Assembly: GCA_049512075.1 (NCBI GenBank)
Contig: JBEKXL010000003.1
Span: forward strand, 96,001 to 160,000
Source: Candidatus Bathyarchaeia archaeon
Lineage (GTDB): Archaea > Thermoproteota > Bathyarchaeia > Bathyarchaeales > Bathycorpusculaceae
Direction of reading: 5' to 3'
DNA length: 64,000 nt
The position numbers were made by a program, and so were the translations under genes. The notes below the pieces were generated by a model. That model was not told the origin of the DNA, did not search any database, and was given only the letters and a program-made list of their open reading frames with translations. Of the stretch, positions 2,974 through 59,012 are shown piece by piece. Each line of letters begins with the position of its first letter. Within the stretch, counting starts at the first letter, position 1.

Positions 2974-2974
2974 T

Positions 2975-5583: not shown

Positions 5584-6174
5584 TTATTCACGTGATCTTT
5601 CCTCCAGTTTGTCAACCCATTTGTTGTATTCGCGCGCGCCCATCAGGCTGTCAAGCTCTTGCTTCATGGTCAAGGAGTTGTTCGGTTTGATTTCCGCGAT
5701 CCATCCTTGTCCGTATGGGTCTTCGTTGACCATGGTGGGTTTTTCTCTGAGTTTTTCGTTGATTTTGGCTATTTGGCCGCTGACTGGTGAGTAGAGGTCA
5801 AACAGCAGCATCCATGTTTCGGCGACTCCGAACGGTTCCATTTTGTTGAGTTCTTTTCCAACTGGCTCTGTGCGAACTTGAGCCAGACCTCTCAGTCGCT
5901 TCTGTGCATAGTCAGATATGCCGACGCGTACGTTTCCATCTGTTGTCGTTTGAGCCCAGGTGTGTTTCGGCGTGTATAGCAATTGGTCGGGTGCGGAAGG
6001 CGTTTCCTGAGTCTTGCCCGTTGAGAATCCCTCTGCGCGCGCGAGTTCCTCCAGACGTAGGCGGATAGCCTCTGAAACAAATTCCGATATGCTTCGGTAA
6101 CGGCCTGTTTTGATGACCTTTTCGATTTCTTTTATGAGCTCCTGTCTGATGCTAATCGTCTTCCACTCAGACAT
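5584..6174 (-). CDS. Ribbon-helix-helix domain fused to a glycine cleavage H-protein-like domain lacking the lipoyl Lys
   Basis: N-term WKTISI...YRSISEFVSEAIR (RHH/CopG). C-term YTPKHTW...VGISDYAQ...DLYSPVSG...VNEDPYGQGW (GcvH fold), with AETWM in place of AESVK. Confidence 0.85.
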   Translation of the reverse strand: MSEWKTISIRQELIKEIEKVIKTGRYRSISEFVSEAIRLRLEELARAEGFSTGKTQETPSAPDQLLYTPKHTWAQTTTDGNVRVGISDYAQKRLRGLAQVRTEPVGKELNKMEPFGVAETWMLLFDLYSPVSGQIAKINEKLREKPTMVNEDPYGQGWIAEIKPNNSLTMKQELDSLMGAREYNKWVDKLEERSRE

Positions 6175-6398
6175 TCACAGGCCTTCCTTCCCTCGGTTTT
6201 GAGTTAGATGTGCTTCAAGTTTGAGTTATTTAGAGTTTTCCTTGACCGTCTAGGAAATAATCCATTGCCTGAACATAAATCAAAACAAGTAGACTGGGCG
6301 CTTCCAATCTAGAATGCGGGTCAAAACTGGCCCGATTCTCTCTGATGCTTCGAAAGCCTCGCCAGTTGGGTCTCATTAGAACCACTGAAGGAGGTAGG

Positions 6399-9200
6399 TT
6401 AACTCGGCATCGCTTCTGCTTCTTTCTGTTCTTTTGGTTCCAATTGCGTTCGTATCTGGTTCGAGGCCTGTTTTTCCTTGACCGTTTTTGGCTCTGCGCA
6501 TCTAGCTTCTTCTTCTCTGATGCTGAGCATTCCTTTCACGGTTCCGTCATCCATGTATTTGACGGCGAAGCCCATTTTCTTCATGAGACCCATCGCCCTA
6601 TAGTTGTCAGCAAGCATTATGGCATAGATCGTTTCGAGCTTCATGTCAGCGCAGATTTCAAGCACATAATCTACGAGTTTCGTGCCGAGTCCTAGACCTT
6701 GCCAAGGGTCGGCGACTATGAAGGCGATTTCACCTGTTCTTCCGTCAGGTTCTATGCTCACTCGGGCTACGCCGAGGATTCTTTTTCGTCCTTCTTCCGT
6801 CAGTTCTGCGACTATGGCTATTTCTCGGTCGTAGTCTATGTTGCAGTAGCGGACTCTGGTTTCGTGCGGTGTGTCCTTGAGTACCTGGAAGAACCTATAG
6901 CGTATTGATTCTTCTGAGAAGTTCTGGAACATTTCTAGCCATAGTGGTTCGTCTTCGGGCTTTATCGGCCTCAGTATGACCGTCCTCCCGTCTCTTAATC
7001 TCCACATGGTCTCGTATTTTGTCGGATACGGCGTGACGATGAGATGCTGGTGAGGCTCAAACTTTGTAAATACCTTTGAGGGGTCTATCACGATGCGCGC
7101 GTCGAAGGCGAAGGCTTCTTTTTCATTTATGAAAAGCGGGTTGATGTCAACCTCTTTGAGCTGCGGAAAATCAACGAGCATTTGGCTGAAGCGGACCATT
7201 ATTTCTTCCAGCAGTTTGATGTTCGCGGGAGGGAAATTTCGATATCCTTTCAGAAGTTGATACATCTTCGTTTCTTCCATCATTCTTCTGACAAGAGTCT
7301 GGTTCAGCGGTGGGATTCCTATTGCGAAGTCCTTAAACAGCCCAACTCCAACTCCACCCATCCCGAAGAGTATGACCGGGCCGAAGAGCGGGTCTGCTTT
7401 CGCCCCGATGATTACCTCGTAGCCCTGCCTCTTTATCATGGGCTGAACGGTCACGCCCAGAATCTCAGCGTCCGGATCGTGTTCCTTTGCCTTCTGCGTT
7501 ATGCGTTTGAACGCCTCTCGCGCTTCGGCCTCGCTTGTTATGTCAAGCACGACGCCGCCTACGTCGCTTTTGTGAGTTATTTGAGGAGACAGAACCTTCA
7601 TCACGACCGGATATCCCAGCTGCGAAGCCAGTAGAGCCGCTTCGTTTTCAGTCTGAGCAGTCTTCGTTTTCACAACTGGGAAGTTGTAGTACTCCAAGAA
7701 TGTTTTGGCTTCAACTTCGGTGAGTATTTCACGGTTCTCAGTCGCAACGTTTCTCAACACGGTCAAGAGTGGTCGTCTTGGCGGCACAACGTCTACTGGA
7801 AGTTCTTCCGGTGTTTCATAAAGCAATTCAAGGTTGCGCTTGTACTGGTACATGTATTGGTACGTCTTGATTGCCTGCTCGGGTGTGGAGTATGTCGGAA
7901 TGTTGTTATCTATGAATATACGGTTAGCTTCTTCCACCGCTCCATAACCCATGAAAGAAGTCAATATTGTCTTGTTTTGATAAGTTCGGCTTCTTATCAG
8001 CTCTGCGAGACTCTTGGCCACTTCCACAGGTTCTACCACGGCTTGGGCAGTGTATATTATCACTATTCCATCCACATTATCATCGTTTAGACAAGCCTCA
8101 ACAACCGCCCTGTACCTGTCGGCCTTGGCGTCTCCGAGGATGTCAATCGGGTTTCCCCTGCTCCAGAAATGAGGCAGAACACTGTTGAGAACCTCCATCG
8201 TCTTGTCGCTGAGCTTCGCAAGCGTTCCTCCCTGAGCGATTAGAGAGTCGGTTGCCATGACGCCCGGCCCGCCGGCGTTGGTGATTATGGCAAGGTTGGG
8301 GCCTCGAGGTATAGGCTGCATGCCTAGCACTGCGGCACAGTTGAAAAGGTCCGCGATTTCTTCCACTCTAACCATGCCCGCCCGTTTGAACGCCTTGTCG
8401 TAAATCATGTCTTCGCCCGTCAGCGAACCAGTGTGCGAAGCAGCGGCTTTCGCGCTTTCGCTGAACTTGCCAGCCTTCACCACGATTATCGGTTTAGTTC
8501 GGGCAAAGTGTCTCGCGGCGCTCATGAACTTTCTGGCGTCGGTGATTCCTTCAATGTACATGAGGATGCTCTTCGTCTTCGGATCAGTGCCGAAATAGTC
8601 CATGAGGTCACCGAAGTCCACGTCGATCATCGAGCCCAACGACACGAAGTTGCTGAACCCTATGTTTTCATGCATCGCCCAGTCAAGGATTGCCGTGCCC
8701 AAGGCGCCGCTCTGAGAGATGAACGCTATGTTGCCCGGCTTCGGCATCTTGCTGATGAACGTCGCGTTCAAGTGCATAATTGGACGAATCACACCTAGAC
8801 AGTTCGGTCCAACGATTCGCATGTTATATTTCTTCTTGATTTCGGTTATTCTCTCTTCCAGTGCTCTGCCCTCAGGCCCGATTTCTTTGAAGCCCGCTGA
8901 GATTACGATAATGCCGTCTATACCGGCTCTTCCACACTGTTCGAGGACATCGGGCACAGTTCTCGCCGGTGTGGCTATCACGGCAAGATCCACGGGTTCA
9001 GGAACCTGTTCGACGTTTGCATAAGCCTTCAAGCCCAGAACCTCGGTTTTCTTGAGATTGACAGGAAAAACATGCCCCCCGAACCCTGACTCTGTGAAAT
9101 TCTTCATCAAAGCATAGCCGACTGAACCCTCTTCATCGCTTGCCCCAATAACCGCCACGCTTTTCGGGTTGAAAATCTTGTCAAGATTCAAGGTAACCAA
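6399..9200 (-). CDS. NDP-forming acyl-CoA ligase alpha/beta + C-terminal GNAT fusion (Pat/YfiQ-type protein acetyltransferase)
   Basis: VIGAS, GPNCLG, SQSGA, SHTGSL, TNAGGPG, ITHKSDVGGV, DINP, then GNAT LRDG...RPIKPED...WQGLGLG. Confidence 0.9.
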   Translation of the reverse strand: MVTLNLDKIFNPKSVAVIGASDEEGSVGYALMKNFTESGFGGHVFPVNLKKTEVLGLKAYANVEQVPEPVDLAVIATPARTVPDVLEQCGRAGIDGIIVISAGFKEIGPEGRALEERITEIKKKYNMRIVGPNCLGVIRPIMHLNATFISKMPKPGNIAFISQSGALGTAILDWAMHENIGFSNFVSLGSMIDVDFGDLMDYFGTDPKTKSILMYIEGITDARKFMSAARHFARTKPIIVVKAGKFSESAKAAASHTGSLTGEDMIYDKAFKRAGMVRVEEIADLFNCAAVLGMQPIPRGPNLAIITNAGGPGVMATDSLIAQGGTLAKLSDKTMEVLNSVLPHFWSRGNPIDILGDAKADRYRAVVEACLNDDNVDGIVIIYTAQAVVEPVEVAKSLAELIRSRTYQNKTILTSFMGYGAVEEANRIFIDNNIPTYSTPEQAIKTYQYMYQYKRNLELLYETPEELPVDVVPPRRPLLTVLRNVATENREILTEVEAKTFLEYYNFPVVKTKTAQTENEAALLASQLGYPVVMKVLSPQITHKSDVGGVVLDITSEAEAREAFKRITQKAKEHDPDAEILGVTVQPMIKRQGYEVIIGAKADPLFGPVILFGMGGVGVGLFKDFAIGIPPLNQTLVRRMMEETKMYQLLKGYRNFPPANIKLLEEIMVRFSQMLVDFPQLKEVDINPLFINEKEAFAFDARIVIDPSKVFTKFEPHQHLIVTPYPTKYETMWRLRDGRTVILRPIKPEDEPLWLEMFQNFSEESIRYRFFQVLKDTPHETRVRYCNIDYDREIAIVAELTEEGRKRILGVARVSIEPDGRTGEIAFIVADPWQGLGLGTKLVDYVLEICADMKLETIYAIMLADNYRAMGLMKKMGFAVKYMDDGTVKGMLSIREEEARCAEPKTVKEKQASNQIRTQLEPKEQKEAEAMPS

Positions 9201-9433
9201 GACTGTAACCTTCCCAGAGTACGTGTTGAGCTGGATTAAGAAATTAGAGCTTTATTAAACATGAAATACACCTGAGTATTACACCCCATTATCCATCAAC
9301 TGAAGAAGCTTATCGACATGGCTAGATAAAAAGTTTAGGAAGCCTTGATACGTTTCTAGATGTGTCGAAAGTGCAGAACAGAAATTCATGTGTATGCCAA
9401 TTTCTTTTATATGAGTTCTGAATAGCGTTCATT

Positions 9434-9976
9434 ATGTATTCAAAAACAGTTGTCTTCCTTGGTATAATTGGAGTTTCCTTGTCGTTGATTCTAGGGCTAT
9501 TGTCAATTATAGTATGGCAAATTGTCGCTGTTCTAATCGCTGTCTCATTGGGGATTCCTAGCTTGGTCTTGAACCATGAGAGACTCAAATTAGAAGTAAC
9601 TACTAAACCGAAAGAAGGAGGGAAGGAACAGGTAACTTTGGAAAAGAAAGATACTCCACTTGAAGGAACAATACTTGTGAGTCCTAAAGGCGGTTACTCT
9701 TATGAATTCGAGTATTTAGCGAAAGGCGACCATATAAAAGGGGAAATAGTCTCGACTGAACGTATAGACATCTACTTTGTTGATAACATCAATTTCGACA
9801 AATGGAATAGAGACGTTGGTTTTGACTTTAGAGACTGCAATGAAGATGTTTTGGAAACTAAGATAGACTATTCAGTTTCCAAGAAGGGAACATGGTACGT
9901 ATTGATAGAGAACAATGGAAGAAAAGTAGCTAAAGTCAAGGTTCACTTGAGTGAACATCAAGGACAGAAATCTTAA
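9434..9976 (+). CDS. Hypothetical membrane-anchored protein with a beta-sandwich-like domain (AT-rich)
   Basis: 180-aa ORF, two N-terminal hydrophobic helices, GTWYVLIENN motif. Confidence 0.65.
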   Translation: MYSKTVVFLGIIGVSLSLILGLLSIIVWQIVAVLIAVSLGIPSLVLNHERLKLEVTTKPKEGGKEQVTLEKKDTPLEGTILVSPKGGYSYEFEYLAKGDHIKGEIVSTERIDIYFVDNINFDKWNRDVGFDFRDCNEDVLETKIDYSVSKKGTWYVLIENNGRKVAKVKVHLSEHQGQKS

Positions 9977-10124
9977 ATCTACACGGCAACTGAAGACGAA
10001 CTAAAGAACTAAAGAGGGAAACAGCTAGTCATTGTCTAACTAGCTATCAACATTATGCCCAAAGAGTAGAACTAAACCTTTAAACATTGAACGAACAACG
10101 ATAATCCTTAGGCGAAGAACCTTT

Positions 10125-11339
10125 ATGCCAAAGTCTTCTTCAAAAGCACTATCAAAAATGACAACCAAACACAATCTATGGAAAAAATGGGTTCCTACTC
10201 TTGTCCTGTTTTTGGTTCCAATTCTGCTGGGTGTACAGATAGGCATTTACTATGCTGCCCCAGAGAATTTTCCAGTCGGTGTATCTTACCTTACTCGTAC
10301 TAGATATGATCCGACTTTATTACATGATCGACCAGAATTATACAGTATCATTGGTTTTCTGCCTTGCCCAGTAGAATCGTACATTGATTGTAAAATCAAT
10401 TTGAAATCGCTGGAAGAAGTGGGAGTAAAATGGACTCAGGTGAGTCATCTTACTGATAATACCACATCCCTTGAATTGGTAGAGATAACTCTTTTTCCTA
10501 TTGATTATGTGCATGATCCAATTCTGACTCTTAACGGCCAAAATGCAGCCTTTTATTTATCTAATGATACTGGCTTGCAGTGTCTTACCGCAAAGGGATT
10601 CAATCTTACGGATACTAGCCAAATTGAGACCGTCGTAACAACATTTAATGTTGAACGTGCAGCATCCAATGAAAACAGATCTGTCAATATTCCTTGGGTT
10701 TTCAATGAAAACTATGCACAAATTATCAAGTTTCCTGCTATTGATATTGCTGTTGAAAAAAACAAGACATCTGAAGAGAGCACTTTCAAGATAGTTTTTG
10801 ATCTTCCTTTCAGACAGCTTGTAACAGGTATGAGTGGTTGGGTGGACAGATTTGATTTGCCATATTCACATTGGATTTTTCTCAATCCAAATTCAACTTC
10901 AGTTCCCTATAAAGAAGTCTATTTTGAATACCCAATAAACCAAACGGTTCAATCTAGCGGAAACACATATTACTTCAAGACTAACTTCTCCGAGCAAAAC
11001 ACAGCAGATTCATACATGATTACGACCATCCCTAGCTTTGATACAATCCTTTTTCTCTTTCCTTTCATGGCGTCACCTTTTATTATTTTCATAGAAGGTA
11101 ATACACTAGGCAAACGGGAAAAGATAAGGAACTTGAAGGGATTTCTCCGCTTCATATACGGTTTTGGTTTGTCGTATTCTTTTTGCATTGCATTTGTATT
11201 TGTTCTCACAGGTGGTCTAGTACAATCGCTTTCTTTGTTTTTCTATCTTTTAGGCATAATGAGTCCATTAGGTTTTCTTACCTTGGTCTATCCCCCCATT
11301 TCCTATGCTGTGTTACACAAAACAATTCTGAAGGTTTGA
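10125..11339 (+). CDS. Hypothetical membrane/surface glycoprotein (AT-rich)
   Basis: 404-aa ORF; N-terminal TM, many NxS/T sequons, C-terminal TM helices. Confidence 0.7.
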   Translation: MPKSSSKALSKMTTKHNLWKKWVPTLVLFLVPILLGVQIGIYYAAPENFPVGVSYLTRTRYDPTLLHDRPELYSIIGFLPCPVESYIDCKINLKSLEEVGVKWTQVSHLTDNTTSLELVEITLFPIDYVHDPILTLNGQNAAFYLSNDTGLQCLTAKGFNLTDTSQIETVVTTFNVERAASNENRSVNIPWVFNENYAQIIKFPAIDIAVEKNKTSEESTFKIVFDLPFRQLVTGMSGWVDRFDLPYSHWIFLNPNSTSVPYKEVYFEYPINQTVQSSGNTYYFKTNFSEQNTADSYMITTIPSFDTILFLFPFMASPFIIFIEGNTLGKREKIRNLKGFLRFIYGFGLSYSFCIAFVFVLTGGLVQSLSLFFYLLGIMSPLGFLTLVYPPISYAVLHKTILKV

Positions 11340-11396
11340 CAGGATGGGTATCCTAAACTACATGGTTATAAGAAAAACAAAACAGAGGGACAAAAA

Positions 11397-11945
11397 GTGA
11401 GTAAAAATAGTATGATTAGTTTGAATATTGCTTACGCACTAGGAATAATCATCATCATTTTGTTCGGTGCGGTAGTATATCTTTCAGTGAGCATAGTATC
11501 CATAAATAATAATGGCGCGTATTTCGACAGCTATGTATTACAACACGGTTATAGCAATGCTGATTATGATGCTCTGCAAAACCAAGTAAATGACTTGAAT
11601 GCCACCGCCAACCTTACAAAATCTACGGGTTGGTTCAATAACCTGACAATAAGCAATGTTGCGGGTGATGTCGTAAATTTGACACCGCCCACATCAGTTC
11701 CTTATGCAGGATATGTCGCAGTTCAAGTTAACAGCTTGACAGGAAATAACAATACGGCTGTTGAAATGATATTCTCTTCCGCGATATTCTCTTCAGGAAC
11801 CTACAATTCTGACGTTAGGCAACCAGTCGGTGTAGGTGGCACCGTAATATTTACGATTTTACCAACGACAAATCTCGTAATCAAGATAGGAACGTTAGAT
11901 GGCAGTGCCGCAACTGAAACCGTGACAATAGTATACTACTACTAA
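11397..11945 (+). CDS. Hypothetical membrane-anchored secreted protein (AT-rich)
   Basis: N-terminal TM, short coiled coil, beta-rich domain ending VYYY. Confidence 0.7.
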   Translation: MSKNSMISLNIAYALGIIIIILFGAVVYLSVSIVSINNNGAYFDSYVLQHGYSNADYDALQNQVNDLNATANLTKSTGWFNNLTISNVAGDVVNLTPPTSVPYAGYVAVQVNSLTGNNNTAVEMIFSSAIFSSGTYNSDVRQPVGVGGTVIFTILPTTNLVIKIGTLDGSAATETVTIVYYY

Positions 11946-12029
11946 ACCCACTCTCCCCCTTCAGTTTAAGCCATGCCGTACAGAAGGCTCTAGTCAAGCT
12001 GAAAGCAGAGTGCGAAAGGAAGGAAGATC

Positions 12030-12370
12030 CACCCTAGGGGTGTTTACATCATTCTTCCACGTATGGTGTGATAGCTTAATCGTTTCGCTCGCTCGCTCTC
12101 CACTCTGAACTCCATGACTGGCGTCCTTCCGTCATCCGTATAGAGCTACTCGCTGCACTTCCAATTAAGCTGTCACGTGTATCCTACTGTAGATGCTTGA
12201 TAGTATCAAGTGATTTGTGCCTTCACGGATAGTCTCTACATGCATCCACTAAGGACGGTTGAACAGTAGGCTCTATCAGTGGCCATGGAGAACACCATCA
12301 AGCATCATGGAAATAAATCATCCTTTAATCCTATGGAAAAGCATGGACAAACACCTAAACCTACACCATA
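12030..12370 (+). ncRNA. Candidate structured non-coding element (RNA or ssDNA)
   Basis: Nested stems: GGTGTTT 12039/AAACACC 12349; TTCCA 12055/TGGAA 12334; GTGATAGCTTAAT 12068/ATTAAGCTGTCAC 12164; CCTACTGT 12183/ACAGTAGG 12263; CTTGATA-G-TATCAAG 12196-12210. No ORF in the track. Confidence 0.4.
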
Positions 12371-12474
12371 GCGCGCACTAGTGTTGAAAGTCTCACTGGT
12401 GCCTTCAGCCATTTGCAGAGCGATAATTCTTTATTCGAAGAATGCCAACAAAGCACCAGCGAGGATCGCTGAGA

Positions 12475-12864: not shown

Positions 12865-13006
12865 GGCGCTATAGATCTTTTGAGCGAAAGTTCTAGAAGA
12901 ATGCTATAGAAGTATCCTCTCTGAAGAGCGCGCGCTTAGTGCACGCCTCCGCTCTGCTACGCGGACGGCAGACCTAGAGAAAAAGTTTCGCAGAAAAAGG
13001 TGAGAG

Positions 13007-13381: not shown

Positions 13382-13558
13382 TTCTATTCACGCCCGTTAA
13401 GAAACTACATAGAGAGTATGTCGAAATACCGCTATAAGCGTTTCCCTCCTATTTCAAAATATCACTAGGTTAGCGCGCGCTAAGCGCCCCTAACGCATTA
13501 GATTACATGCTCGAAAAGTTGATTAACCAGAAAGGTAAAGTAGAGAAGGGGTACGGAA

Positions 13559-15211: not shown

Positions 15212-15448
15212 TCAAAATAGGGCTTCAGAGGCTAGGCAGCGGTGAGGCGCGCGCGCGCTCCCTATCTTCGCGTGGTCAACCTTGATAGTAAACTTTTTTA
15301 TGACGCCCTTCAACCTCAATGCTTGAACCCTTTTTCTCACAGCCGCCTCGCTCATACCCAATTTCTCTGCCATATCGTTGTAAGATTTCCGCCCGTCTTC
15401 CTCCAACATTTCGATTATTCTCTCATCTTTTTCGTCAATTTGTAACAT
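15212..15448 (-). pseudogene. Lrp/AsnC regulator, HTH only; probably truncated at a (GC)6 tract
   Basis: IDEKDERII...DGRKSY...SEAAVRKRV...GVIKKFTIKVDHAKIG, then similarity ends at GCGCGCGCGCGC (15247-15258). Confidence 0.65.
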
Positions 15449-16452: not shown

Positions 16453-16561
16453 TAGGGTTCAAAATGGGCTTCCGGTTGAACGCGCGCCAGCCTGTTGCTA
16501 ACTCGATTTCTTTGTGTTACTTTCTGCCTAACCTGCGAGTGGCAGGATAAGGAGCACAACC

Positions 16562-18433: not shown

Positions 18434-18703
18434 ACGCCAACCTCCTCGAGAGCTAAGTCTAACATGATCTCTCGCGCGCTTTTATTTCTAATGTTTAGAA
18501 CGCATGTTTTGATGATTCTCGATCGAAAGATGTGCATGGGATACGCGCCTGTTCAAAGGGCAACATTCTACCTTATCATGCCGACGCGCGCGCTGGAATT
18601 GTGTTCATAGCATTAGGGTTTCTCTATCCATACCATAGAACGCTACCACCACCTACTAACCCACAGCAACAGAAAACAAACTAGGAGTTCAAGCGCGCTA
18701 GGG

Positions 18704-18812
18704 TGTTCCTAAATTCCTTCTTTGGGTGCAGTAGGCTTGAGTTGTATCTCGCTGCAAGGGACTGTGTCATGAATGAAGAAGTATAGATCGCCCGCAAATG
18801 AATTTAGGAACA
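18704..18812. mobile_element. Candidate MITE (~110 bp) with 13-bp terminal inverted repeats
   Basis: TGTTCCTAAATTC (18704-18716) and GAATTTAGGAACA (18800-18812); no coding capacity; preceded by CTAGGG. Confidence 0.5.
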
Positions 18813-18989
18813 AGCATGCGCGCTACTCTAAAGTCTATTTTGAATAGAGCTATTAATAGTTGGAGTACTGTACGCAATTAGAGAATTCTCCACGTCATAC
18901 GCTGCAGTGATTCATGAGATCAAGAGTGAACAATAGTGAAGCACGTATCTCACGCAGCGGAAACGCGCAATTGCGTGAGAAATTGCAGC

Positions 18990-25883: not shown

Positions 25884-26074
25884 GCATCCACCTTCCTGAA
25901 CTTTCTGAAATACGTCCTACTCGTGCGCAAGCTTAAACATATCGTCTTCCTCTCGCGCGCGCTATATGATGTGTCTAGAATTGATTTCTATAACTGAGTC
26001 ACCAAAAATTACTAATCCTAGTTGCAACAAAGGGGTGTCGAGCACTCCCTAACTGCTAAAGGGAGGTTAGAAGA

Positions 26075-31470: not shown

Positions 31471-31526
31471 ATCCTCTTAGCACACGCATACAATGTCTAA
31501 GCTGGAGATCTAAACTGGTTCCCAAC

Positions 31527-32009: not shown

Positions 32010-32947
32010 TTTTCTTCACCTCTCTCTGGCTCAATTCTCAACATATCGGGCTTTGTAGGTTTCGACTTGTTTTTTTGATTGATATTGCGCGGGAGTTTGT
32101 TACGCAATGTTTCCTGAACCAAAGCAAGAAGGATCGTCATAGCCTGAAATACTAAAAAGTTATGAATTCAAAAGATGGATTGCTCCTTCCTCGCGCGCTA
32201 ACAGCTGATGGAACAACGTAAAAGCCTTGCACAAAAGAACGTGCAAACAGGCCGCCGACAGCATTTCAAGGAATATTCGATGAATATTCAGTTAAACAAG
32301 CCCATTCCTTTGAGAACTAGTCGCAGTACAAAGACTATCATAGCAGGGCAAGAAGACCGTTCTCTTGTTTGCCCTTTGAGGGACAGAGGAAGAAAAGGGT
32401 TTGAAACACGACTGTCACACGATTTTGCAACAGAGACACATAAGACCCCCATATTGTAAGAGTGCGCGTACTAACATAGTTAACATTGAAAACCTAGCAT
32501 CTTGTCACAAGAATAGCGCACGCAGCAGACAAATGCTTTCGCAACCCCTCCTGTGGAATTCTCTTCCTCGCTCTTATGCCCGCGATAGTTACATTCGTAT
32601 TCTTGCCTGTGAGAAAAATGAGACAAATGAAAATGCCTAGACGCCACTCCGAACGCGGACCACAATAAAAGACAGGAAGGCAATACGAGAAAAACTGAAA
32701 ATCAGATGCCCCTTCTTTGGCAATTCTTATTATGATATCAAAAACAAGTGTCCTTGTTGCAGTCAAAGACCACTTGACTCAGGTTCGAAAGGCACTTAGG
32801 TGTGGGAGAACTTCAAAAGGGTCTGTGCGAAAATACGCTGCCATTTAGCGCGCGCATATCATACAAGTGCGCGTTACTGCAGCAGGGTAGTACAGAAAGT
32901 TTAAAACTCCTTAAGTTGCAAGGTATTAGTCGCAGGAGGAAAGCATT

Positions 32948-49979: not shown

Positions 49980-49982
49980 AAG

Positions 49983-52299: not shown

Positions 52300-52381
52300 A
52301 CGTCCACCGTATTCCGCCTAAATCTTGGTTCAAGAGTATTTTCATTGATTTCATGTGCGAGCTTCTTCGCAACGGGCGCTC

Positions 52382-53239: not shown

Positions 53240-53413
53240 TCATTACAGTTGTATAAGAATGTGATTTAAGAATTACTGTTCTCCGACAGCTCTTGCGATT
53301 GCGGACTTTCGAACACTCAGACGGCGGAAGCAGTTTGTCAAACCTGCAAAAAGATTCTTTTTTATATAAGCAGTGTGCGTAATAAATTCGGAGTATGCTG
53401 TGAAGGGATTTCG

Positions 53414-53842
53414 ATGGCAGGAATGTTGTCAGTTAGAGAAGTGATGACGCGCGATGTTAAGGTCGTAAGAGAAGACACGAGCATGCAAGAAGTAATTGCA
53501 ACCATGATGAAGTTTGACATAAGTAGCGTGGTTGTTGTCCAGAAGGAGAGGCCTATTGGACTGATAACTCATAAGGACATATTGACCAGAGTGCTTCAGC
53601 CAGAGCTCCTTCCCGCCACTTTGACCGCGAGAAACGTGATGTCGGCTAGCCTCGTCACCATAGGAGAAGAAGCCAGTCTGGAAGAGGCAGCAAGACTTAT
53701 GGTCAGAAAGGGCTTCAAGAAGCTGCTAGTAGTGCAAGACGGCAAGCTCGTCGGAATTATCACAAGCATGGATATTGCCAGAGAAGAGCCTAAACTAACA
53801 AAGCTCTTTGAGGAATTGCTGAAATACTGCCCAAAACGCTGA
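53414..53842 (+). CDS. CBS domain pair protein
   Basis: VREVMT...GLITHKD...GIITSMD. Confidence 0.9.
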   Translation: MAGMLSVREVMTRDVKVVREDTSMQEVIATMMKFDISSVVVVQKERPIGLITHKDILTRVLQPELLPATLTARNVMSASLVTIGEEASLEEAARLMVRKGFKKLLVVQDGKLVGIITSMDIAREEPKLTKLFEELLKYCPKR

Positions 53843-54060
53843 CAACGAAATTCAAGGTTCGGCGACAAGCAATTAACAAGAATATCGACAGTGCGCCCTG
53901 ACGGCTCGTTAGGCCAACTGGACTTGATCATCCATCCACATGCCCATCTATTTCTATAGGCTCCTGTTGTAACATAGCATTAACTGACATTATAACGAGG
54001 AGCGGGCCACCTTTGACGGGCGCGCGCTCAACTCCATGCCCTATGAAGTTGACGCAGGCT

Positions 54061-55509
54061 TCACTCAGTTGAAAGGCCATAATGTTCTTCGATCATGTGA
54101 TGGTACTGATCTACTGGCATGCTGGAGGCAACCGCTCTTTGCACAACTTCGCTTAGGGAGGGGTGAATGTGCATTCCTTCGACTATTGGCTCTGCACTCT
54201 GGGTAGGCGTGTACATGAGGTTTATTATCTCCTGGATAAGGACAGAGGCGTATGGTCCGATGATGTGTGCACCCAGGATCTTCGTTGTAGTCGACTCCAT
54301 TATGACCTTGACGAAAAAGTCTTTCACACCCATGGCCAATCCCTTGGCAGTGTCTTCGTAGCGTTGGATTCCAATCAGAACGTTGCTCTTGCCATACTTT
54401 TCTATCGCTTCTGTCTCTTTGAGTCCAACGCTGGCAATTTCCGGATAGGTGAAGACGGCGTTCGGCACCGCGTGATAGTCGACTTTGATTCGTTTCTTCT
54501 GCACAGCATTGTAGTACACGAGCAATGCTTCGTAGTTCGCCACGTGCTTGAAGAGGTATTTGCCGTCGGCATCCCCAAAGGCCCAAACGTTTGGCTGCGA
54601 CGTTTCCAAATATTCATTGACAATTATCCATCCCTTTTCGTCTGTTCTTATTCCAGCCCTTTCCGGATGAAGTATGTCCGTGTTTGGTGCCCTTCCTGAA
54701 GCGATCAATATTTCTTCAGCGGCTACCTCTGCTTCTTTCCCACTCTCTCTGTTGACAGCAACTAGTTTTTTCCTTCCAGCTGAAGTGTTCTCGACGCTGC
54801 GAACCTCATGGTTGGTCATTATCGTGATGTGCTTCTGCAGCTCTCTCTTTGCCAGTGCCGACACTTCGGGCTCTTCTTCTGGAATGAACTGCCGATTTCT
54901 GCCGATAACAGTGACTTTCGACCCCATGGCAGAAAAGAAATGGCCGTATTCTGCTGCGATGTATCCTCCGCCGATGATTGCTATACTCTGGGGGAGGCTG
55001 TCCATTTTGAGGATGGTGTCGCTTGTATGATATTTGATGTTTTCTAGGCCTTTTATTGCTGGGATTAGCGGTTTTGATCCAGTGCACAAAAAAATCATTT
55101 CTGACTTTATGGTTTCCTTTCCAACCTTCATAGTGTATGGTGCGACGAATTCGGCCACGCTGTTGTAGTAATCCAAGTTTTTGGTGTGGGTGAGCCCTTG
55201 CTTCATCGCGTTTATGTCTACATGAATCAGTTTTCTCATTCTCTCCATAACTGCTCGGAAATCCACGTTTTTCATGTCCACGGATATTCCAAACTCCTTG
55301 GCCCTTTCAATTGTCCTCACCATCTCGGCGGGGTACAGCAGGATTTTGGAGGGAATACAGCCTCGCGTCAGGCATATTCCGCCAGGCTCGTCCTTGTCTA
55401 TCACCGCAACCTTAAGGTCAGGGGTTTCTTGTTCCATAGCATTCACGATTTCCAGGGCAGATCCCGAGCCTATGACGATGAGATCGTATTCCTTCACTTC
55501 AATCACCAC
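54061..55509 (-). CDS. Dihydrolipoamide dehydrogenase / mycothione-reductase-like disulfide reductase
   Basis: GGICLTRGCIPSK, IIGGGYIAAE, KHVANYEA, HIHPSLSE. Confidence 0.85.
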   Translation of the reverse strand: MVIEVKEYDLIVIGSGSALEIVNAMEQETPDLKVAVIDKDEPGGICLTRGCIPSKILLYPAEMVRTIERAKEFGISVDMKNVDFRAVMERMRKLIHVDINAMKQGLTHTKNLDYYNSVAEFVAPYTMKVGKETIKSEMIFLCTGSKPLIPAIKGLENIKYHTSDTILKMDSLPQSIAIIGGGYIAAEYGHFFSAMGSKVTVIGRNRQFIPEEEPEVSALAKRELQKHITIMTNHEVRSVENTSAGRKKLVAVNRESGKEAEVAAEEILIASGRAPNTDILHPERAGIRTDEKGWIIVNEYLETSQPNVWAFGDADGKYLFKHVANYEALLVYYNAVQKKRIKVDYHAVPNAVFTYPEIASVGLKETEAIEKYGKSNVLIGIQRYEDTAKGLAMGVKDFFVKVIMESTTTKILGAHIIGPYASVLIQEIINLMYTPTQSAEPIVEGMHIHPSLSEVVQRAVASSMPVDQYHHMIEEHYGLSTE

Positions 55510-55747
55510 GAGCTTGTTTGGAGATTAGGAGTGAAAAATGTAATAAATGTGATTGTTGAACGCGCAACCCGCGCTTTCATTGCGTGCTCTTTACAACCGG
55601 GACCGGAACTGGCCCTGCACCACTGATTCTCAGTATTGATTTTGACTTCATAAGCGCTTTATCAAGAAAACCAGCATTAACGCACAGGCTCTCACGCTTC
55701 GATGTGAGAGCCCAATTTGTAACAGCAACAGTCAAGAGGACATTAAA

Positions 55748-56203
55748 GTGATTGTCAAAAACAGTTCAAAATACCCTTCCGACCAGGTTGAAAACCTCGT
55801 GAAATTCGCTCTGAAGAACGTTCCACATTCCGAAGAATTGGAAGTGCATGTGAAAAATAGCAAACACGCATTCTACGGACGAATCTTCGCAAGCGCAGAG
55901 GATTGTACATGCGACTGCAACGGCCAACGCTTCCTAATTGTAGTCAGGATAGGCAGGGCGAAACACTTCCCGTACCTTTCCGTCTATCCGGACCACAAAC
56001 GGTGCCAAAAGTACGCGGTAATGTTGAACGACTGGAAGGAAGCACTCGTGAAAGTCACGGCGCATGAAGGAATGCACCTGAGACAATGGATAGAGAAGAA
56101 ACCCATGTGGGAACACCAGGCAGAAAGGCACGCAATAATGATTCTGGGCAAGTACCGAGACACTGTCGTCGCTTGTGCGCCGCTACTGAGTCCCATTGAC
56201 TAG
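55748..56203 (+). CDS. Hypothetical protein with HEXXH zinc-metallopeptidase motif
   Basis: VTAHEGMHLRQ...EHQAE. Confidence 0.6.
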   Translation: MIVKNSSKYPSDQVENLVKFALKNVPHSEELEVHVKNSKHAFYGRIFASAEDCTCDCNGQRFLIVVRIGRAKHFPYLSVYPDHKRCQKYAVMLNDWKEALVKVTAHEGMHLRQWIEKKPMWEHQAERHAIMILGKYRDTVVACAPLLSPID

Positions 56204-56530
56204 ATAGGCGATCTTAGCGCGCATGTGTGTTCCTAGGTTCGATGTTTGAGTGTGATGAGGATGAGCAGCGTTCTTGTGTTGCGTGATTTGTGTGCGCGCG
56301 CAACGGGTGTAGGCCCCTCTATTTGAAGTTAAATATGACTTCTCGGTTCTGGGTGTGCGGCAGTGTGGATGGGTGGTCCTAAACTGGTGTAAAACGCTTT
56401 TTGTTCTTCTCTTGCCTGTTTGCGATTGATATGGCTTGTTTGAGGGGCAAATCTTGCGCGCGCTGTTAATCCAAGTATGCTGAAACACCTTTTGCATCAT
56501 AGCCCAGCAAAGTCGCTCCCCTTTTTCACT

Positions 56531-56647
56531 TGTAATGTCAGATGTAATGTGTACTGTTACAAACCATGGAGAAAATCAGGCTGGACTACTGTTCAGAGTG
56601 GACTCGGCCCTTTTATTTGTAATGTCAGATGTAATTTTCAATGTAAT
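56531..56647. repeat. Two clusters of 12-bp-phased TGTAAT boxes; TTGTAATGTCAGATGTAAT direct repeat
   Basis: TGTAAT at 56531, 56543, (TGTTAC 56555) and 56618, 56630, 56642. Confidence 0.6.
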
Positions 56648-56869
56648 AGACAGGGACGGTAGTGTTGCCCGCGGTACAAAGCCAGAACGGTTAGGTCTGG
56701 CAGGCTTACTTCGCCGTTGCCGTCTATGTCGCGCGCGCTGGTCATTAAACAGAAAAATAGCGTTTGAGGCGTGTGCTCTATGCTTTGCCGATTGCCTCCT
56801 TTGTGCAAGGTTTATTACTTCAATCACGAGTAACCAATAAGCCGTTGGCGATCTGAAGGAAGGCTGCAT

Positions 56870-58162
56870 ATGCGTACGTACGTTCACCGTCTGCCCGGCA
56901 TCGTTTTAACTGGCCATGAATTCAATGTGCCCTTTGATCACAGGCAGCCCGATGGCGAGATGATAAGCATCTTTGGACGCGAAGTGGTTGCGAGTGACAA
57001 GGAAAAGAGCGATTTGCCGTGGCTTGTCTTCTTTCAAGGTGGTCCCGGTATGGAAGCGCCGCGTCCTGAAAACAGCAGTGGCTGGCTGAAAAGAGCACTG
57101 CAAGAGTATCGTGTGTTTCTGCTTGATCAACGCGGGACAGGCCGCAGCACGCCCGTCAACTATCAGACGTTGGCGCGGTTCGCCACTGCTAGAGAGCAGG
57201 CTGAATACCTGAAGAATTTTCGCGCTGATTCAATCGTGCGAGACGCTGAATTGATTCGACGCGAATTGCTCGGAGAGGGTGGCCGCTGGAGTGTGCTGGG
57301 GCAGAGCTACGGGGGCTTCTGCGTGACGCATTATCTGTCCGTCGCGCCAGATGGACTGAAGGAGGCGATTATGACTGGTGGATTACCGCCGTTGAATCGG
57401 CCGCCCGACGACGTTTATCGCGCCACTTATCAGCGCGTCATTGACAAGAACAGACTTTACTACGAACGTTACCCCGATGACATCGGACGTGTGAGAGAAA
57501 TCGTCGACTATCTAGAGTCGCATGAGGTGAACTTGCCAGGTGGCGATAGACTGTCACCGAGACGGTTTCAGCAACTCGGCATAGCGTTCGGGATGAACAA
57601 CGGTTTCGAACAAGTTCACTACCTGCTCGAAAAAGCGTTCCTTCGCGACGCAGCTAATCTGCAGATAAGCTATGCTTTCCTGCGCGGCTTCGAAAACTCC
57701 CTCTCGTTTGAAACCAACCCAATCTACGCGATTCTGCACGAATCACTCTACTGCGAGGAAACCGCCTCCAACTGGTCAGCTGATCGCGTCCGACAAGAGT
57801 GCCCAGAATTTGAGATCACACGTGATCAACCTGTGTACTTCACGGGCGAGATGGTGTATCCATGGATGTTTGACGAGTACAAGTACCTGCGACCATTGAA
57901 AGAGGCGGCGGAGATTTTGGCGACGTACGACGGCTGGCCGAAGCTGTACGATAAATCGGTCTTGCAATCGAACACAGTTCCGTGCGCAGCCGCCATTTAC
58001 TACAACGACATGTACGTCGAGCGAACGCTCTCAGAGGAAACCGCAAAGAACATTCGCGGCATCAAGCTATGGGTCACCAGTGAATACTATCACAATGGCC
58101 TGCGCGCCGATGGTGAAAAAGTGCTGGGCCGCTTACTGGGCATGCTCCATGGAGAAAACTGA
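56870..58162 (+). CDS. Proline iminopeptidase (S33 alpha/beta hydrolase, bacterial long type)
   Basis: FQGGPG, DQRGTG, GQSYGG, DMYV, HNGLR. Confidence 0.88.
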   Translation: MRTYVHRLPGIVLTGHEFNVPFDHRQPDGEMISIFGREVVASDKEKSDLPWLVFFQGGPGMEAPRPENSSGWLKRALQEYRVFLLDQRGTGRSTPVNYQTLARFATAREQAEYLKNFRADSIVRDAELIRRELLGEGGRWSVLGQSYGGFCVTHYLSVAPDGLKEAIMTGGLPPLNRPPDDVYRATYQRVIDKNRLYYERYPDDIGRVREIVDYLESHEVNLPGGDRLSPRRFQQLGIAFGMNNGFEQVHYLLEKAFLRDAANLQISYAFLRGFENSLSFETNPIYAILHESLYCEETASNWSADRVRQECPEFEITRDQPVYFTGEMVYPWMFDEYKYLRPLKEAAEILATYDGWPKLYDKSVLQSNTVPCAAAIYYNDMYVERTLSEETAKNIRGIKLWVTSEYYHNGLRADGEKVLGRLLGMLHGEN

Positions 58163-58422
58163 TACGGCACTCAATTACATCGAAAAATATGCAAAGCTGT
58201 ATCGCGTGGTGACAGAAGCCAACAAGTCGGCCAAACATGTGTGTGAGTAGCGCTTTCAAAGATTGGGCAGACGCGTTGAATGGAGCGCTCTGACATTTGG
58301 GTTAAAGCTTGGCAAGCGCGTGGTGGCTGAATTTCAGTGTTTCAGAAAGAGATAAAATAGGCATGTTATGACGGTATAGTGTTGCCGAAGCTGTGGCTTG
58401 GGAATAAAGGCATGAGTCTGGA

Positions 58423-58683
58423 GTGAGCTGTTTGACTTCATTATTGTGCAGATTGGGGCTACACAAGTGGAAGAATTACGGAGAAGTTGTGAAGATTAGC
58501 TGGAAGGAGCCAGGGTTTGTTCCATCAACCACGGAGAAAATTGAAAAGTTTGTGCACTCGGAGAGGATGTGTTTGCGATGCGGAATAAAGGAGAGGAGAA
58601 GATTCGCTGAAAACCGAGATGGATCTCAAGCAGCAATAGGATGGGAAAGAATAAACAACGGAACACAGAATTCAACACAGTAA
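58423..58683 (+). CDS. Small Cys/His protein (DUF1660-like)
   Basis: LLCRLGLHKW...CLRCG. Confidence 0.6.
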   Translation: MSCLTSLLCRLGLHKWKNYGEVVKISWKEPGFVPSTTEKIEKFVHSERMCLRCGIKERRRFAENRDGSQAAIGWERINNGTQNSTQ

Positions 58684-58739
58684 GCGCGCCTCAAAGATGC
58701 ACACGTATTCTGTACAATAGTCGTGTTTTGCTCCTCTAC

Positions 58740-58940
58740 TTACATGACAGAGTTCCATACGTTCATCGAGTGTGTGGCAGGTTCTATGAGCGGCATGAAC
58801 TCTTCTCTGAATCTTATCATCGCATTGTCTTTTCGCATTCTCGCCCTCCATTTTTCAGCTTCCGCCAGGTCCTTGAACGCCATCATTTCAACATGCACAC
58901 CCGACAAGCTATCGAATGCTTGGCGATAGATTCTCCATGA
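58740..58940 (-). pseudogene. Probable 5'-truncated gene fragment
   Basis: Protein-like VEMMAFKDLAEAEKW...FMPLIEP...W begins right at the GAGCGCGCGCTC palindrome (58939-58950). Confidence 0.35.
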
Positions 58941-59012
58941 GCGCGCGCTCCGTTCCAAGTCATATTAATGATTTAATCAAGTTGTATCAATGATTTAAGC
59001 GTCCGCTATCAG

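Follow-up and report, generated by a model that had tools for sequence, protein, structure and literature searches.

The genome of this Bathyarchaeia archaeon (G000) contains several hundred copies of the octamer GCGCGCGC, and these GC runs are placed at breakpoints of homology with its sister species, G002. We consider it somewhat probable that the runs are neutral junction scars and not a selected or methylation-maintained signal. Their placement suggests an undescribed DNA-joining route instead of a methylation signal.

Abundance and form of the GC runs

In the window, the whole 64,000-nucleotide stretch of DNA analysed, GCGCGCGC was present at 13 places (15 matches when overlaps are counted), compared to a mean of 0.84 in dinucleotide-preserving shuffles; the largest shuffle count was 4, and 15 was reached in 0 of 100. 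These places reproduce exactly the list, from 5632 through 58941, given in a preliminary description made from the sequence alone. A search of the window for AGCGCGCGCT with up to two mismatches returned 50 matches versus 26.3 expected, a number reached in 0 of 100 shuffles. It recovered the degenerate copies described at 12370, 14532, 14553, 16424, and 19283 but not the one at 31478, which is more than two mismatches away.

Across the whole genome (2.73 Mb in 86 contigs, completeness 99.76%), GCGCGCGC tops all 8-mers with 646 copies. By our own gene calls, which rest on a crude scoring of ORFs (2501 genes, 78.7% coding), 566 of the 646 copies (88%) were outside genes, where a third-order Markov model built on the intergenic DNA predicts 105.9. 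The octamer is, as had been proposed, a highly iterated palindrome enriched genome-wide over background, and the feature is lineage-specific. The description of the copies as mostly intergenic also held, with 9 of the 13 window copies outside gene calls; those at 15247 and 58941 are at the margins of doubtful ORF calls, and only those at 5632 and 6035 are inside a well-scoring ORF (5584–6174, minus strand).

The run consensus is A-(GC)4-5-T, with flanks that are otherwise random. Intergenic A(GC)nT was counted 100, 68, 110, 47, and 0 times for n = 2, 3, 4, 5, and 6, a length spectrum unlike that of slippage, and (GC)6 runs are rare in G000 (3 in all). Among four-unit dinucleotide repeats, (GC)4 was found 451 times versus 14–70 for the others. 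The features of the window are as follows.

5631–5639: CGCGCGCGC, genic copy in the minus-strand ORF 5584–6174; the G002 ortholog has CACGCGGCC and the alignment is continuous
6035–6043: GCGCGCGCG, genic copy in the same ORF; G002 reads GCGCGCGTG, a one-base change
12370–12379: degenerate copy AGCGCGCACT, from the mismatch search
12928–12935: intergenic A-GCGCGCGC-T; G002 homology ends 33 bp away
13473–13480: intergenic TTA-GCGCGCGC-TAA, previously termed the perfect form; 55 bp in G000, including the run, versus a 744-bp segment in G002
15247–15258: (GC)6, longer than any other run in the window; an alignment ends 1 bp away
16479–16539, plus strand: terminal fragment of IS-A (IS5 family), starting AA-CGCGCGC-CAGCCTGTTGCTAAC and aligned with other IS-A ends
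18585–18593: intergenic CGCGCGCGC-T; synteny breaks 45 bp away, with G002 contig C2 to one side and C6 to the other
18692–18824: 133-bp MITE derived from IS-A, with arms of 28 nt that are 82% complementary
25954–25962: intergenic run; an alignment ends 2 bp away
32848–32855: intergenic A-GCGCGCGC-A, exactly where an alignment ends (distance 0)
32866: degenerate copy AGTGCGCGTT near the 32848 run, from the mismatch search
54020–54027: intergenic G-GCGCGCGC-T, exactly where an alignment ends (distance 0)
56294–56301: run in a 543-bp stretch where G002 has a different 742-bp stretch (event G002_C6 98918/99661)
56456–56738: 283-bp dispersed element (the 285-bp element), with GCGCGCGC at each end (56456–56463 and 56731–56738)
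58941–58948: A-GCGCGCGC-T just upstream of a minus-strand ATG; G002 has 146–149 bp there

Several of these runs are at or near differences in length. By HSP coordinates, 47 bp around 12928 in G000 correspond to about 1.1 kb in G002, and the 15247–15258 run borders a roughly 4-kb length difference between the same genomes. The 58941 run is present in X5, where a covering record lists no difference, and an X7 contig skips 58941–58951. The IS-A fragment at 16479–16539 recurs as a dispersed repeat in each of the five relatives compared. The terminal inverted repeats of the MITE are A-GCGCGC-TAGGGTGTTCCTAAATT and AATTTAGGAACAAGCAT-GCGCGC-T, and both arms have dozens of matches in relatives.

Placement of the runs at structural joints

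When BLAST was run without low-complexity filtering, 82 of the 212 intergenic runs with at least 8 bases were within 5 bp of the end of a G002 alignment, compared to 235 of 6218 control intergenic positions (3.8%); the share of G002 compared was 1.525 of 2.327 Mb. Each of ten control palindromes was near alignment ends in 0–3 of 16–86 cases, and other dinucleotide repeats in 0–1 of 16–17. In the window, 7 of the 13 runs were within 2 bp of an alignment end.

All 235 length differences of at least 6 bp were then catalogued in 1.01 Mb aligned with G002, and 72 had a junction run of at least 6 bases, compared to 383 of 15,750 random intergenic 19-nt windows (2.4%). By automatic event class, which includes some errors (for example, G2_C15 14616 is truly run-segment-run), the share of events with a junction run was 10/105 for small indels, 32/77 for one-sided events longer than 24 bp, and 30/53 for replacements. 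Since 45 of the 77 one-sided events and 95 of the 105 small indels had no run, the runs are not the sole joining route. In 22 events a segment of 89–3891 bp was opposite a solo run, which was in G000 in 10 cases and in G002 in 12, and was at least 8 bases long in 14. Deletion-linked births of runs include one inside a helicase-like gene. These observations show that the runs mark structural joints, at which deletion, insertion, or relocation of DNA took place.

The 285-bp element illustrates such joints. G000 contains 6 full and more than 30 partial copies, and runs form the exact limits of their homology; the ends are not inverted, and nothing is duplicated beyond the runs. In truncated copies of this element and of IS-A, runs cap the variable truncation points. 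Contigs from three other metagenomes start at 56456 or stop at 56738–56740, and an X7 contig, from another population, passes directly from 56455 to 56731, the two sides having 9 letters in common. This is an empty site with one run, which fits site-specific insertion as well. The element was present in G001 and G002 and was not found in G003, G004, G020, G021, G089, G098, G114, G250, or G322; an Rfam search gave no match, and its fold z-score was −0.88.

Origin and conservation of the runs

The run was the derived state in all three polarised events (E3, E4, and E5). The 520-bp segment of E4 aligns, together with its flanks, to G004 over its full length at 95.5%, the 131-bp segment of E5 aligns to G001 at 92.5%, and in E3, CGCGCGCG in G002 replaces 38 bp of an IS copy that are homologous to a paralogous copy. 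The ancestral segments of E4, E5, and n3 contain no internal run. At G002_C3 65497, the G004 spacer is similar in length and unaligned, giving length-only support for a derived run. At G002_C4 30132, the allele of the outgroup G003 is short, and the segment there may therefore have been inserted. AGCGCGCGCG, CGCGCGCG, or AGCGCGCGCGAT was also found cleanly inserted in sites with no earlier GC repeat, and one inserted 8-run is flanked by a 4-bp duplication, CGCC. New copies appeared as 8–12-bp insertions or deletion junctions and not by point substitution. For the polarised cases, these allele comparisons show a de novo origin of the run.

Identity between G000 and G002 was 0.939 in the runs and 0.952 in their flanks. 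At 50 anchored sites, counted in both directions with shared sites counted twice, 18 were the same, 9 were substituted, and 23 had an indel. Conservation of the runs is no better than that of the flanks, and selection on them is, as judged from these alignments, absent.

A model for run formation

We propose that a short self-complementary tract, mostly (T)A-(GC)4-5-T(A), would be made de novo where DNA breaks and rejoins, and that the same GC tract would be added where a piece of DNA inserts. The products would be plain 8–12-bp insertions, solo runs that take the place of deleted segments, and runs edging inserted, duplicated, or mobile segments. Such scars would survive almost only between genes, because an 8–12-bp insertion breaks a reading frame. 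Their later erosion would be as fast as ordinary mutation, and continuing production would be needed to sustain their abundance. Existing runs may be reused as joints, with any two pairing in either orientation, and the 285-bp element, IS5-family elements, and MITEs would insert at or between runs, with their loss leaving one run. The tract is presumably made during end joining or insertion, either copied from runs or element ends or added by an enzyme; we know of no enzymology for a constant filler at repair joints.

Alternative explanations

The preliminary description had interpreted the octamer as a HIP1-like, probably methylated signal, with deamination of 5mC yielding the variants; such a palindrome would be gained by methyltransferase-directed biased repair at GCGC-type sites. 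The octamer is indeed palindromic and hyper-abundant, its commonest one-off forms are transition-type variants, and N4/N6 methyltransferases (PF01555) that might act on it are present in nearly all relatives, run-bearing or not. However, a C5 cytosine methyltransferase (PF00145) was not found in G000 or in the run-rich genomes G001, G003, G004, and G021, and G002 gave only a sub-threshold partial match. CpG is neither depleted in G000 (observed/expected 0.94) nor hypermutable: in the 1-Mb alignment of G000 and G002, intergenic transition change was 0.0508 at CpG versus 0.0489 at non-CpG G/C. One-off variants in the A_T context comprised 69 copies in 4 transition classes versus 37 in 8 transversion classes; the transition excess behind the proposed CpG-deamination decay series is therefore real but, at 3.7-fold per class versus an intergenic per-path kappa of 3.9, matches ordinary transition bias. 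The G000 copies are also intergenic, unlike HIP1, lack conservation, and were born by insertion. The HIP1-like, methylation-linked interpretation is contradicted by these results and largely refuted, and we regard it as exceedingly improbable. A functional intergenic signal under selection, such as a protein-binding or Z-DNA site, a terminator or boundary element, or a DNA uptake sequence, would account for the strong intergenic bias (566/646), and (CG)n favours Z-DNA. Tandem spacers have a slight excess of runs within 60 nt after a stop (79/250) versus within 60 nt before a start (37/250). This reading also seems very unlikely, given that the runs are not conserved above their flanks, that run density differs little between spacer types (0.68 per kb in divergent, 0.93 in convergent, and 0.90 in tandem spacers), that window copies have no T-tract after them, that copy number varies 30-fold between congeneric species, and that births occurred with deletions, at one site within the helicase-like gene. 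Ordinary (GC)n microsatellite slippage in a lineage with weak mismatch repair is consistent with 17 of 268 two-base indels being in a run context. As the main process it is refuted, and its probability is negligible, by the non-monotonic spectrum with a hard stop (68, 110, 47, and 0 for n = 3, 4, 5, and 6), the absence of expansion of other dinucleotide repeats, and the one-step insertions of 8–12 bp, some with deletions, at GC-repeat-free sites.

Two further explanations involve recombination or transposition. If the runs were attachment or crossover sites of site-specific recombination, cassettes would enter and leave GCGCGCGC much as in an integron. Runs of constant length enclose segments that are unrelated to each other, among them the 285-bp element, TBP paralogues, and segments that carry genes, such as a 2.4-kb gene that has moved between loci; filled and empty alleles differ by exactly the element plus one run, and run-edged replacements are common (30/53). 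Conservative exchange cannot, however, create a run anew, as in E3, E4, E5, and the clean insertions, and intermediates are scarce, with one case of run-segment-run versus run and one versus no run, compared to the 22 solo-run replacements, so we consider this explanation unlikely. A transposon link, in which runs are excision footprints and/or a preferred target with a 4-bp duplication, is a possible, if doubtful, alternative, and a footprint origin suits part of the data equally well. Elements tipped (A)GCGCGC (IS-A, MITEs, and the 285-bp element) would leave GCGC+GCGC, sometimes with an adjacent deletion. IS5-family elements are bounded by runs in G000, and the tips of every IS-A copy examined, in G000, G001–G004, G021, and about 15 more genomes, fit (GC)GCGC-YRG-NNN-GTTSCTAAAT, with A preceding about half of the ends, as with solo runs. 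In run-poor G029, the tetramers at the two ends form an inverted and not a direct repeat (GTGC...GCAC), which assigns the terminal hexamer to the element itself. The window MITE (A-GCGCGC...GCGCGC-T) would give an 8-run as 6 + 6 minus a 4-bp duplication; a 4-bp duplication flanks one solo 8-run, and at another TAG or GTAG may be duplicated. Genomes rich in runs are also enriched for IS-A (8/22 versus 41/379 others). IS-A is 82% identical between copies in G021 and G000, which are of different genera, and no other transposase is among the proteins that G000 encodes in multiple copies. In contrast, IS-A is missing (E ≤ 1e-40) from 14 of the 22 run-rich genomes, and genomes with multiple, GCGCGC-ended IS-A copies are poor in AGCGCGCGCT (3 in G364, 6 in G339, and 10 in G276). 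Ten complete elements have no visible duplication outside the runs, no longer footprints such as GCGCGC-TA-GCGCGC were found, and the 22 deletion-with-run events versus about 7 clean insertions are the reverse of what footprints predict. Neither E4 nor E5 has its deletion endpoints at GCGC sites, and the 285-bp element, found only in G000, G001, and G002, lacks inverted ends.

Distribution in Bathyarchaeia

For the junction-scar model, candidate enzymes and elements were compared across genomes, and none co-distributed with the trait was found among Ku, IS-A, reverse transcriptase, and PolX. Ku was present in 6 of 22 run-rich genomes versus 126 of 401 overall, reverse transcriptase in 0 of 5 run-rich genomes tested, including G000, and PolX in 1 of 5, not including G000. 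Run-rich genomes, with at least 20 copies of AGCGCGCGCT, made up 22 of 401 Bathyarchaeia, in five families, and production of the runs may be driven by a horizontally spreading agent. The distribution is patchy, as with a mobile agent, and counts diverge among congeners (10/104/3, 1/53/3, and 3/1/10/7/83).

Abundance and form of the octamer

The octamer GCGCGCGC was matched exactly at all 13 places listed for the window in the preliminary description, giving 15 occurrences with overlaps where dinucleotide-preserving shuffles of the window predict 0.84, and none of 100 shuffles came near that count. Degenerate copies claimed in the same description are present at 12370, 14532, 14553, 16424, and 19283, and the window holds 50 matches to the form AGCGCGCGCT with up to two mismatches compared to 26.3 expected. 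In the whole genome under study (G000; 2.73 Mb in 86 contigs, 47.5% G+C), for which the nearest DnaK loci are all titled as Bathyarchaeia/Bathyarchaeota MAGs, GCGCGCGC ranks first among all 8-mers with 646 copies, followed at ranks 2-4 by its own overlapping neighbours. It is thus a top-ranked palindromic octamer far above expectation, a trait of HIP1-type sequences. Genes were called by our own crude ORF scoring (2501 genes, 78.7% of G000), and outside them lie 566 of the 646 copies (88%), with 80 within, so that the intergenic bias reported for the window holds genome-wide; a third-order Markov model of intergenic DNA predicts 105.9 copies in place of the 566. The 547 merged GC-repeat tracts, or runs, occur in every type of spacer, at 0.68 per kb in divergent, 0.93 in convergent, and 0.90 in tandem spacers, and are somewhat commoner directly past stop codons than directly before starts.

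A motif logo gave A (69%) before and T (67%) after GCGCGCGC, with lesser preferences for T at −2 and for A at +2; further out the composition is that of the background, indicating that the octamer is not embedded in a longer repeat. The left and right flanks are independent at ±1, with 125 complementary pairs observed and 126.7 expected. The lack of conserved sequence beyond ±2 and of inverted flanks does not fit a MITE- or REP-like identity for the runs, and the lack of flank complementarity rules out a hairpin or P-nucleotide origin. Depletion of an RGCGCY restriction-type site was also ruled out, as AGCGCT counts are ordinary (100 intergenic, 369 genic). No Rfam family was detected in the window at gathering scores, and full-text literature searches for the octamer or iterated palindromes in archaea, and for palindromic repeats in Bathyarchaeia, listed no title or abstract describing the feature.

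Intergenic A(GC)nT tracts with n from 2 to 6 number 100, 68, 110, 47, and 0, while counts for the control T(GC)nA fall (155, 21, 7, 2), and 451 (GC)4 tracts compare with 14-70 for other four-unit dinucleotide repeats. Given this non-monotonic length spectrum and the lack of expansion of other dinucleotide repeats, microsatellite slippage was rejected as the main process. Two-base length changes within runs were seen in 17 cases and may interconvert runs of 6, 8, and 10 bases.

Conservation and methylation

Conservation of the runs was assessed against G002, the sole sister genome compared at scale, which has ~93-94% DNA identity to G000; 1.525 of 2.327 Mb (65%) was compared, of which 1.01 Mb aligns. 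Fifty run sites were anchored by both flanks, 29 taken from G000 and 21 from G002, so that shared sites are counted twice; 18 of these were identical, 9 carried a substitution, and 23 carried indels. Per-base identity was 0.939 in the runs (229 positions) and 0.952 in the flanks, and nothing suggests purifying selection on the runs. HIP1 also occurs within genes and is gained by substitution; the pattern of a palindrome that is also genic and is maintained or conserved was not found here, with 80 of 646 copies genic and runs at 0.939 against 0.952 for their flanks.

The preliminary description had proposed that the octamer is probably methylated and decays by CpG deamination. A search for the C5 methyltransferase domain (PF00145) gave no match in G000 (99.76% complete) and none in the run-rich relatives G001, G003, G004, and G021, while G002 yielded a sub-threshold partial match only. 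N4/N6 methyltransferases (PF01555) are present in 38 of 41 relatives irrespective of runs, their specificity not being readable from sequence. The proposed decay did not hold up, since CpG is not depleted in G000 (observed/expected 0.94) and intergenic transition rates between G000 and G002 are similar at CpG (0.0508) and other G/C sites (0.0489). The degenerate series itself is indeed rich in transitions, with 69 one-off variants in an A_T context in the 4 transition classes compared to 37 in the 8 transversion classes, but this 3.7-fold excess per class is matched by the intergenic per-path transition/transversion ratio of 3.9 between G000 and G002. The variant spectrum and CpG rates indicate that the series reflects the ordinary mutation of unconstrained sequence.

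Runs at structural differences between sister species

In several of the indel cases, a segment in one genome faces nothing but a GC run in the other. All G000/G002 length differences of at least 6 bp were then catalogued (n = 235), in automatic classes that include some errors.

Length differences between G000 and G002 with a run of 6 or more bases
Class; events; events with run
Small indels, 6-30 bp; 105; 10 at junction
One-sided events >24 bp; 77; 32 at junction
Replacements, both alleles >24 bp; 53; 30 at one or more of four edges

About half of the larger structural differences carry a run, while such a run is present in 383 of 15,750 random intergenic 19-nt windows (2.4%). Among the 32 run-bearing one-sided events, 22 consist of a segment against a solo run, five of a segment with a run at one or both edges and a solo run in the other genome, and five of a segment with a run at one or both edges and no run in the other genome. 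The segments opposite solo runs are 89-3891 bp long (median 613), and the solo run lies in G000 in 10 and in G002 in 12 of the 22 events, with a length of at least 8 in 14. At C22:29293-30129 of G000 lies an 835-bp segment in the place of which G002 has GCGCGCG; its 179-aa ORF looks PIN-like, and the locus illustrates the loss of a small gene in exchange for a run.

Runs also coincide with the limits of homology. A G002 alignment ends no more than 5 bp away for 82 (38.7%) of the 212 intergenic runs of at least 8 bases that are close to aligned DNA, compared to 235 of 6218 control intergenic positions (3.8%), 0-3 of 16-86 for each of ten other 6-bp palindromes, and 0-1 of 16-17 for other dinucleotide repeats. 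The result was the same with the BLAST low-complexity filter off, excluding masking as its cause. The runs are unconstrained, intergenic, and located at homology breakpoints.

Polarity was established for three events (E3, E4, and E5), with length-only support for a fourth. At E4, the G000 state (a 520-bp segment with flanks, 641 bp) aligns over its full length to G004 at 95.5%, so that TGCGCGCGC in G002 is the derived state; likewise, at E5 the G000 state (a 131-bp segment with flanks, 252 bp) aligns to G001 at 92.5%, making GCGCGCGCG in G002 derived. At E3, CGCGCGCG in G002 takes the place of 38 bp within an IS copy that are homologous to a paralogous copy. In the fourth event, the outgroup spacer is similar in length to the long allele but does not align, and in another event examined the outgroup carries the short allele. 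The ancestral segments of E4, E5, and n3, an event in which 776 bp was deleted from within a helicase-like gene, contain no internal run. Together, the polarised events and run-free ancestral segments indicate that runs were created de novo at deletion junctions. About seven clean insertions were also found, among them CGCGCGCG, AGCGCGCGCG (twice), and AGCGCGCGCGAT at sites without a prior GC repeat; one has a clear flanking 4-bp duplication (CGCC, at an 8-base run), and one or two others have a possible one.

Runs at the edges of mobile and relocated DNA

Three dispersed features bear on the relation of runs to mobile DNA:

285-bp element, window 56456-56738 (283 bp): dispersed repeat, 6 full and more than 30 partial copies in G000
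IS-A, about 1.12 kb: IS5-family element with DUF772 and DDE_Tnp_1 domains
IS-A-related MITE, window 18692-18824 (133 bp): ends in GCGCGC

Homology between copies of the 285-bp element starts and stops precisely at GCGCGCGC on either side, and the element has neither inverted ends nor a duplication outside its bounding runs. On contigs from three other metagenomes, many copies begin at 56456 or stop at 56738-56740, and one X7 contig joins 56455 to 56731 across nine shared letters, an unoccupied site containing one run. Truncated copies are capped by runs, and their truncation points vary. At one locus, G001 retains a decayed copy with degenerate bounding runs where G000 has 864 bp of genes. The region has no Rfam match at E ≤ 0.1 and folds no better than shuffled sequence. 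The element was rejected as a common agent, being found only in G000, G001, and G002. In the window, both of its bounding runs are covered by G002 alignment yet lie within 1 bp of an alignment end; the only runs inside a long continuous alignment block are the genic copies at 5631 and 6035, and the remaining nine are outside alignment coverage. In all, 7 of the 13 lie within 2 bp of an alignment end.

Every examined copy of IS-A and its MITEs has the terminal sequence GCGCGC-YRG-NNN-GTTSCTAAAT, and the multi-copy proteins of G000 include no transposase other than that of IS-A. In the run-poor genome G029, its terminal tetramers are inverted rather than direct, and hence belong to the element. 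Contig C77 of G000 (about 1.12 kb) consists of a single IS-A copy from end to end, starting with CGCGCC and ending with GGCGCGC, the assembly having broken where the repeat has its GC-run tips. The IS-A transposase at G021:C8:77098-77964 (L154) is 82% identical to that of G000 despite the different genera, and copies in G276, G339, G073, and G364 are 79-81% identical, suggesting recent horizontal spread within the class.

Across G000, 11.1% of 3473 repeat endpoints have a run of at least 6 bases no more than 3 bp away, compared to 1.9% of shifted controls. Runs likewise stand at the ends of a relocated 2.4-kb gene and of duplicated genes (TBP and Lrp-like paralogues), and thus bound or cap both mobile and relocated DNA. 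The genome has eight TATA-binding-protein-like paralogues at eight loci (e.g. C3:194207-194800, C21:1776-2336, and C4:131096-131656) and ten Lrp/AsnC-like regulator paralogues, and several of the duplicated blocks stop at GC runs.

Distribution and candidate agents

Copies of AGCGCGCGCT in 41 related genomes
Genomes; copies
G000; 115
Four congeners; 29-98
G021 (other genus); 63
Five further genomes; 5-11
Remaining 30 genomes; 0-2
Reversed-pattern control; 0-7

In a wider sample, 22 of 401 Bathyarchaeia genomes, across five families, have at least 20 copies, and counts differ widely among congeners (10/104/3, 1/53/3, and 3/1/10/7/83). This patchy distribution suits an agent that spreads horizontally or is easily lost.

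IS-A (E ≤ 1e-40) is present in 8 of the 22 run-rich genomes and 41 of the 379 others, and several run-poor genomes hold multiple copies with GCGCGC tips; it was set aside as a co-distributed agent, the link being weak. Ku was also rejected, occurring in 6 of 22 run-rich genomes and 126 of 401 overall. Reverse transcriptase (PF00078) was not found in the run-rich genomes G000, G089, G098, G114, and G322, among which the PolX thumb domain (PF14791) was present only in G089. A complete bacterial-type end-joining operon lies outside the window at C16:5124-8191 of G000, encoding a LigD primase-polymerase domain, Ku, and an ATP-dependent ligase fused to a 3′-phosphoesterase. The presence of Ku in 126 of 401 sampled Bathyarchaeia is far commoner than we expected for archaea.

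Comparison with known repeats

HIP1 (GCGATCGC) of cyanobacteria is described as a lineage-specific palindromic octamer, the top 8-mer of the genome and often a 10-mer palindrome, that is linked to cognate methyltransferases (Elhai 2015, PMC4390886) and is hyper-abundant, with 15- to 300-fold over-representation (PMC5861425). The G000 runs are likewise a lineage-specific top palindromic octamer, but the HIP1-like reading given in the preliminary description is not sustained, as the copies are mostly intergenic, unconserved, born as insertions or junction fillers, and not accompanied by a C5 methyltransferase. Iterated palindromes are thus not always HIP1 analogues; the G000 type is told from the HIP1 kind by its intergenic bias, absence of conservation, and breakpoint position.

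The GC clusters of yeast mitochondrial DNA (e.g. GC42) are described as short GC-rich palindromes across AT-richer spacers whose mechanism of mobility is unknown, whose copy number changes sporadically from strain to strain, and which take part in recombination, merging and shuffling; they are hairpin-forming units of 30-50 nt with their own sequence families, constrained stems, and a putative AG target duplication (Wu & Hao 2015, PMC4478555). The runs are similarly short, GC-rich palindromes, scattered through AT-richer spacers, that are mobile, vary sporadically in copy number, and are involved in recombination, merging, and shuffling; they differ in their unit of 8-12 bp, lack of constraint, and archaeal host.

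With REP/BIME and DNA uptake sequences, the runs share an abundance of hundreds of short intergenic repeats per genome in lineage-specific dialects. However, REPs are imperfect palindromes of 20-40 nt tied to RAYT transposase, uptake sequences are non-palindromic and gained by substitution, and neither is, to our knowledge, known to mark deletion junctions.

Origin of the runs

In the polarised cases the runs were newly made at junctions, and we infer that a process of DNA joining or insertion, with a constant self-complementary tract as its product, left them as scars. That the runs are neutral junction scars, left either by end joining or by transposons, is well supported when the two forms are taken together. 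Between a scar of end joining and a selected or methylation-kept signal or other origin, we lean slightly towards the former. As with end-joining fillers, the runs are extra bases at deletion junctions in a genome that has a Ku/LigD-PolDom/ligase-phosphoesterase operon. Known fillers, however, are variable or copied from nearby DNA, whereas the run is one constant palindrome, and Ku does not track it. A connection to GCGCGC-tipped transposons, with runs as footprints, preferred targets, or both, appears rather unlikely, even though it would account for the shared half-site A-GCGC, for the single clear duplication of 4 bp, and for IS-A being enriched in run-rich genomes, and an element family with matching tips (IS-A and its MITEs) is present in G000. 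The short scars, sometimes with a flanking duplication, do resemble IS5-family excision footprints, but runs and element are not co-distributed at the class level, the deletion endpoints are not accounted for, the scars often accompany large deletions, and no duplication is visible at the elements themselves. Longer transposon footprints were looked for, and none exist. Site-specific recombination at att- or attC-like sites would explain the filled and empty alleles but not the de novo runs at E3, E4, and E5 or the clean insertions.

Under the end-joining reading, one tentative mechanism, which we regard as possible but doubtful, is that in some Bathyarchaeia ends are bridged during joining or insertion by a constant self-complementary adaptor of the form (T)A(GC)4-5T(A). 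Runs already present, or element tips, might serve in trans as the template for the adaptor, or an undescribed activity might make it, and each non-homologous joint would be stamped with the identical palindrome. Such bridging would explain most simply why clean insertions are fewer than deletions that come with a run, why the points at which truncated repeats are capped vary, and why arbitrary relocated segments carry runs at both edges. The palindrome would then be a minimal, enzyme-poor selfish element igniting sporadically in separate lineages, with existing copies offering universal microhomology for further shuffling of gene cassettes.

If runs do stamp non-homologous joining, they would form a readable record of cuts, deletions, and invasions in the genome of an uncultured archaeon. 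Bathyarchaeia are among the most abundant archaeal groups of sediment and peat, and the runs would provide a simple sequence marker of where their genomes have recently been rearranged or have exchanged gene cassettes. A repair or mobile-DNA activity whose product is a constant palindrome would also be implied, and we know of no precedent for one.

Other features of the window

Short dispersed repeats at 9955-10077 and 11910-12028 have dozens of matches in all five relatives tested, with no inverted repeats and no adjoining GC run. At 1-5473 lie two HdrA-like flavoprotein/ferredoxin fusion ORFs, of at least 1009 aa (crossing the window edge) and 578 aa, both with Pyr_redox_2 and several 4Fe-4S domains, and downstream of them is a 933-aa ADP-forming acetyl-CoA synthetase fused to a GNAT acetyltransferase.
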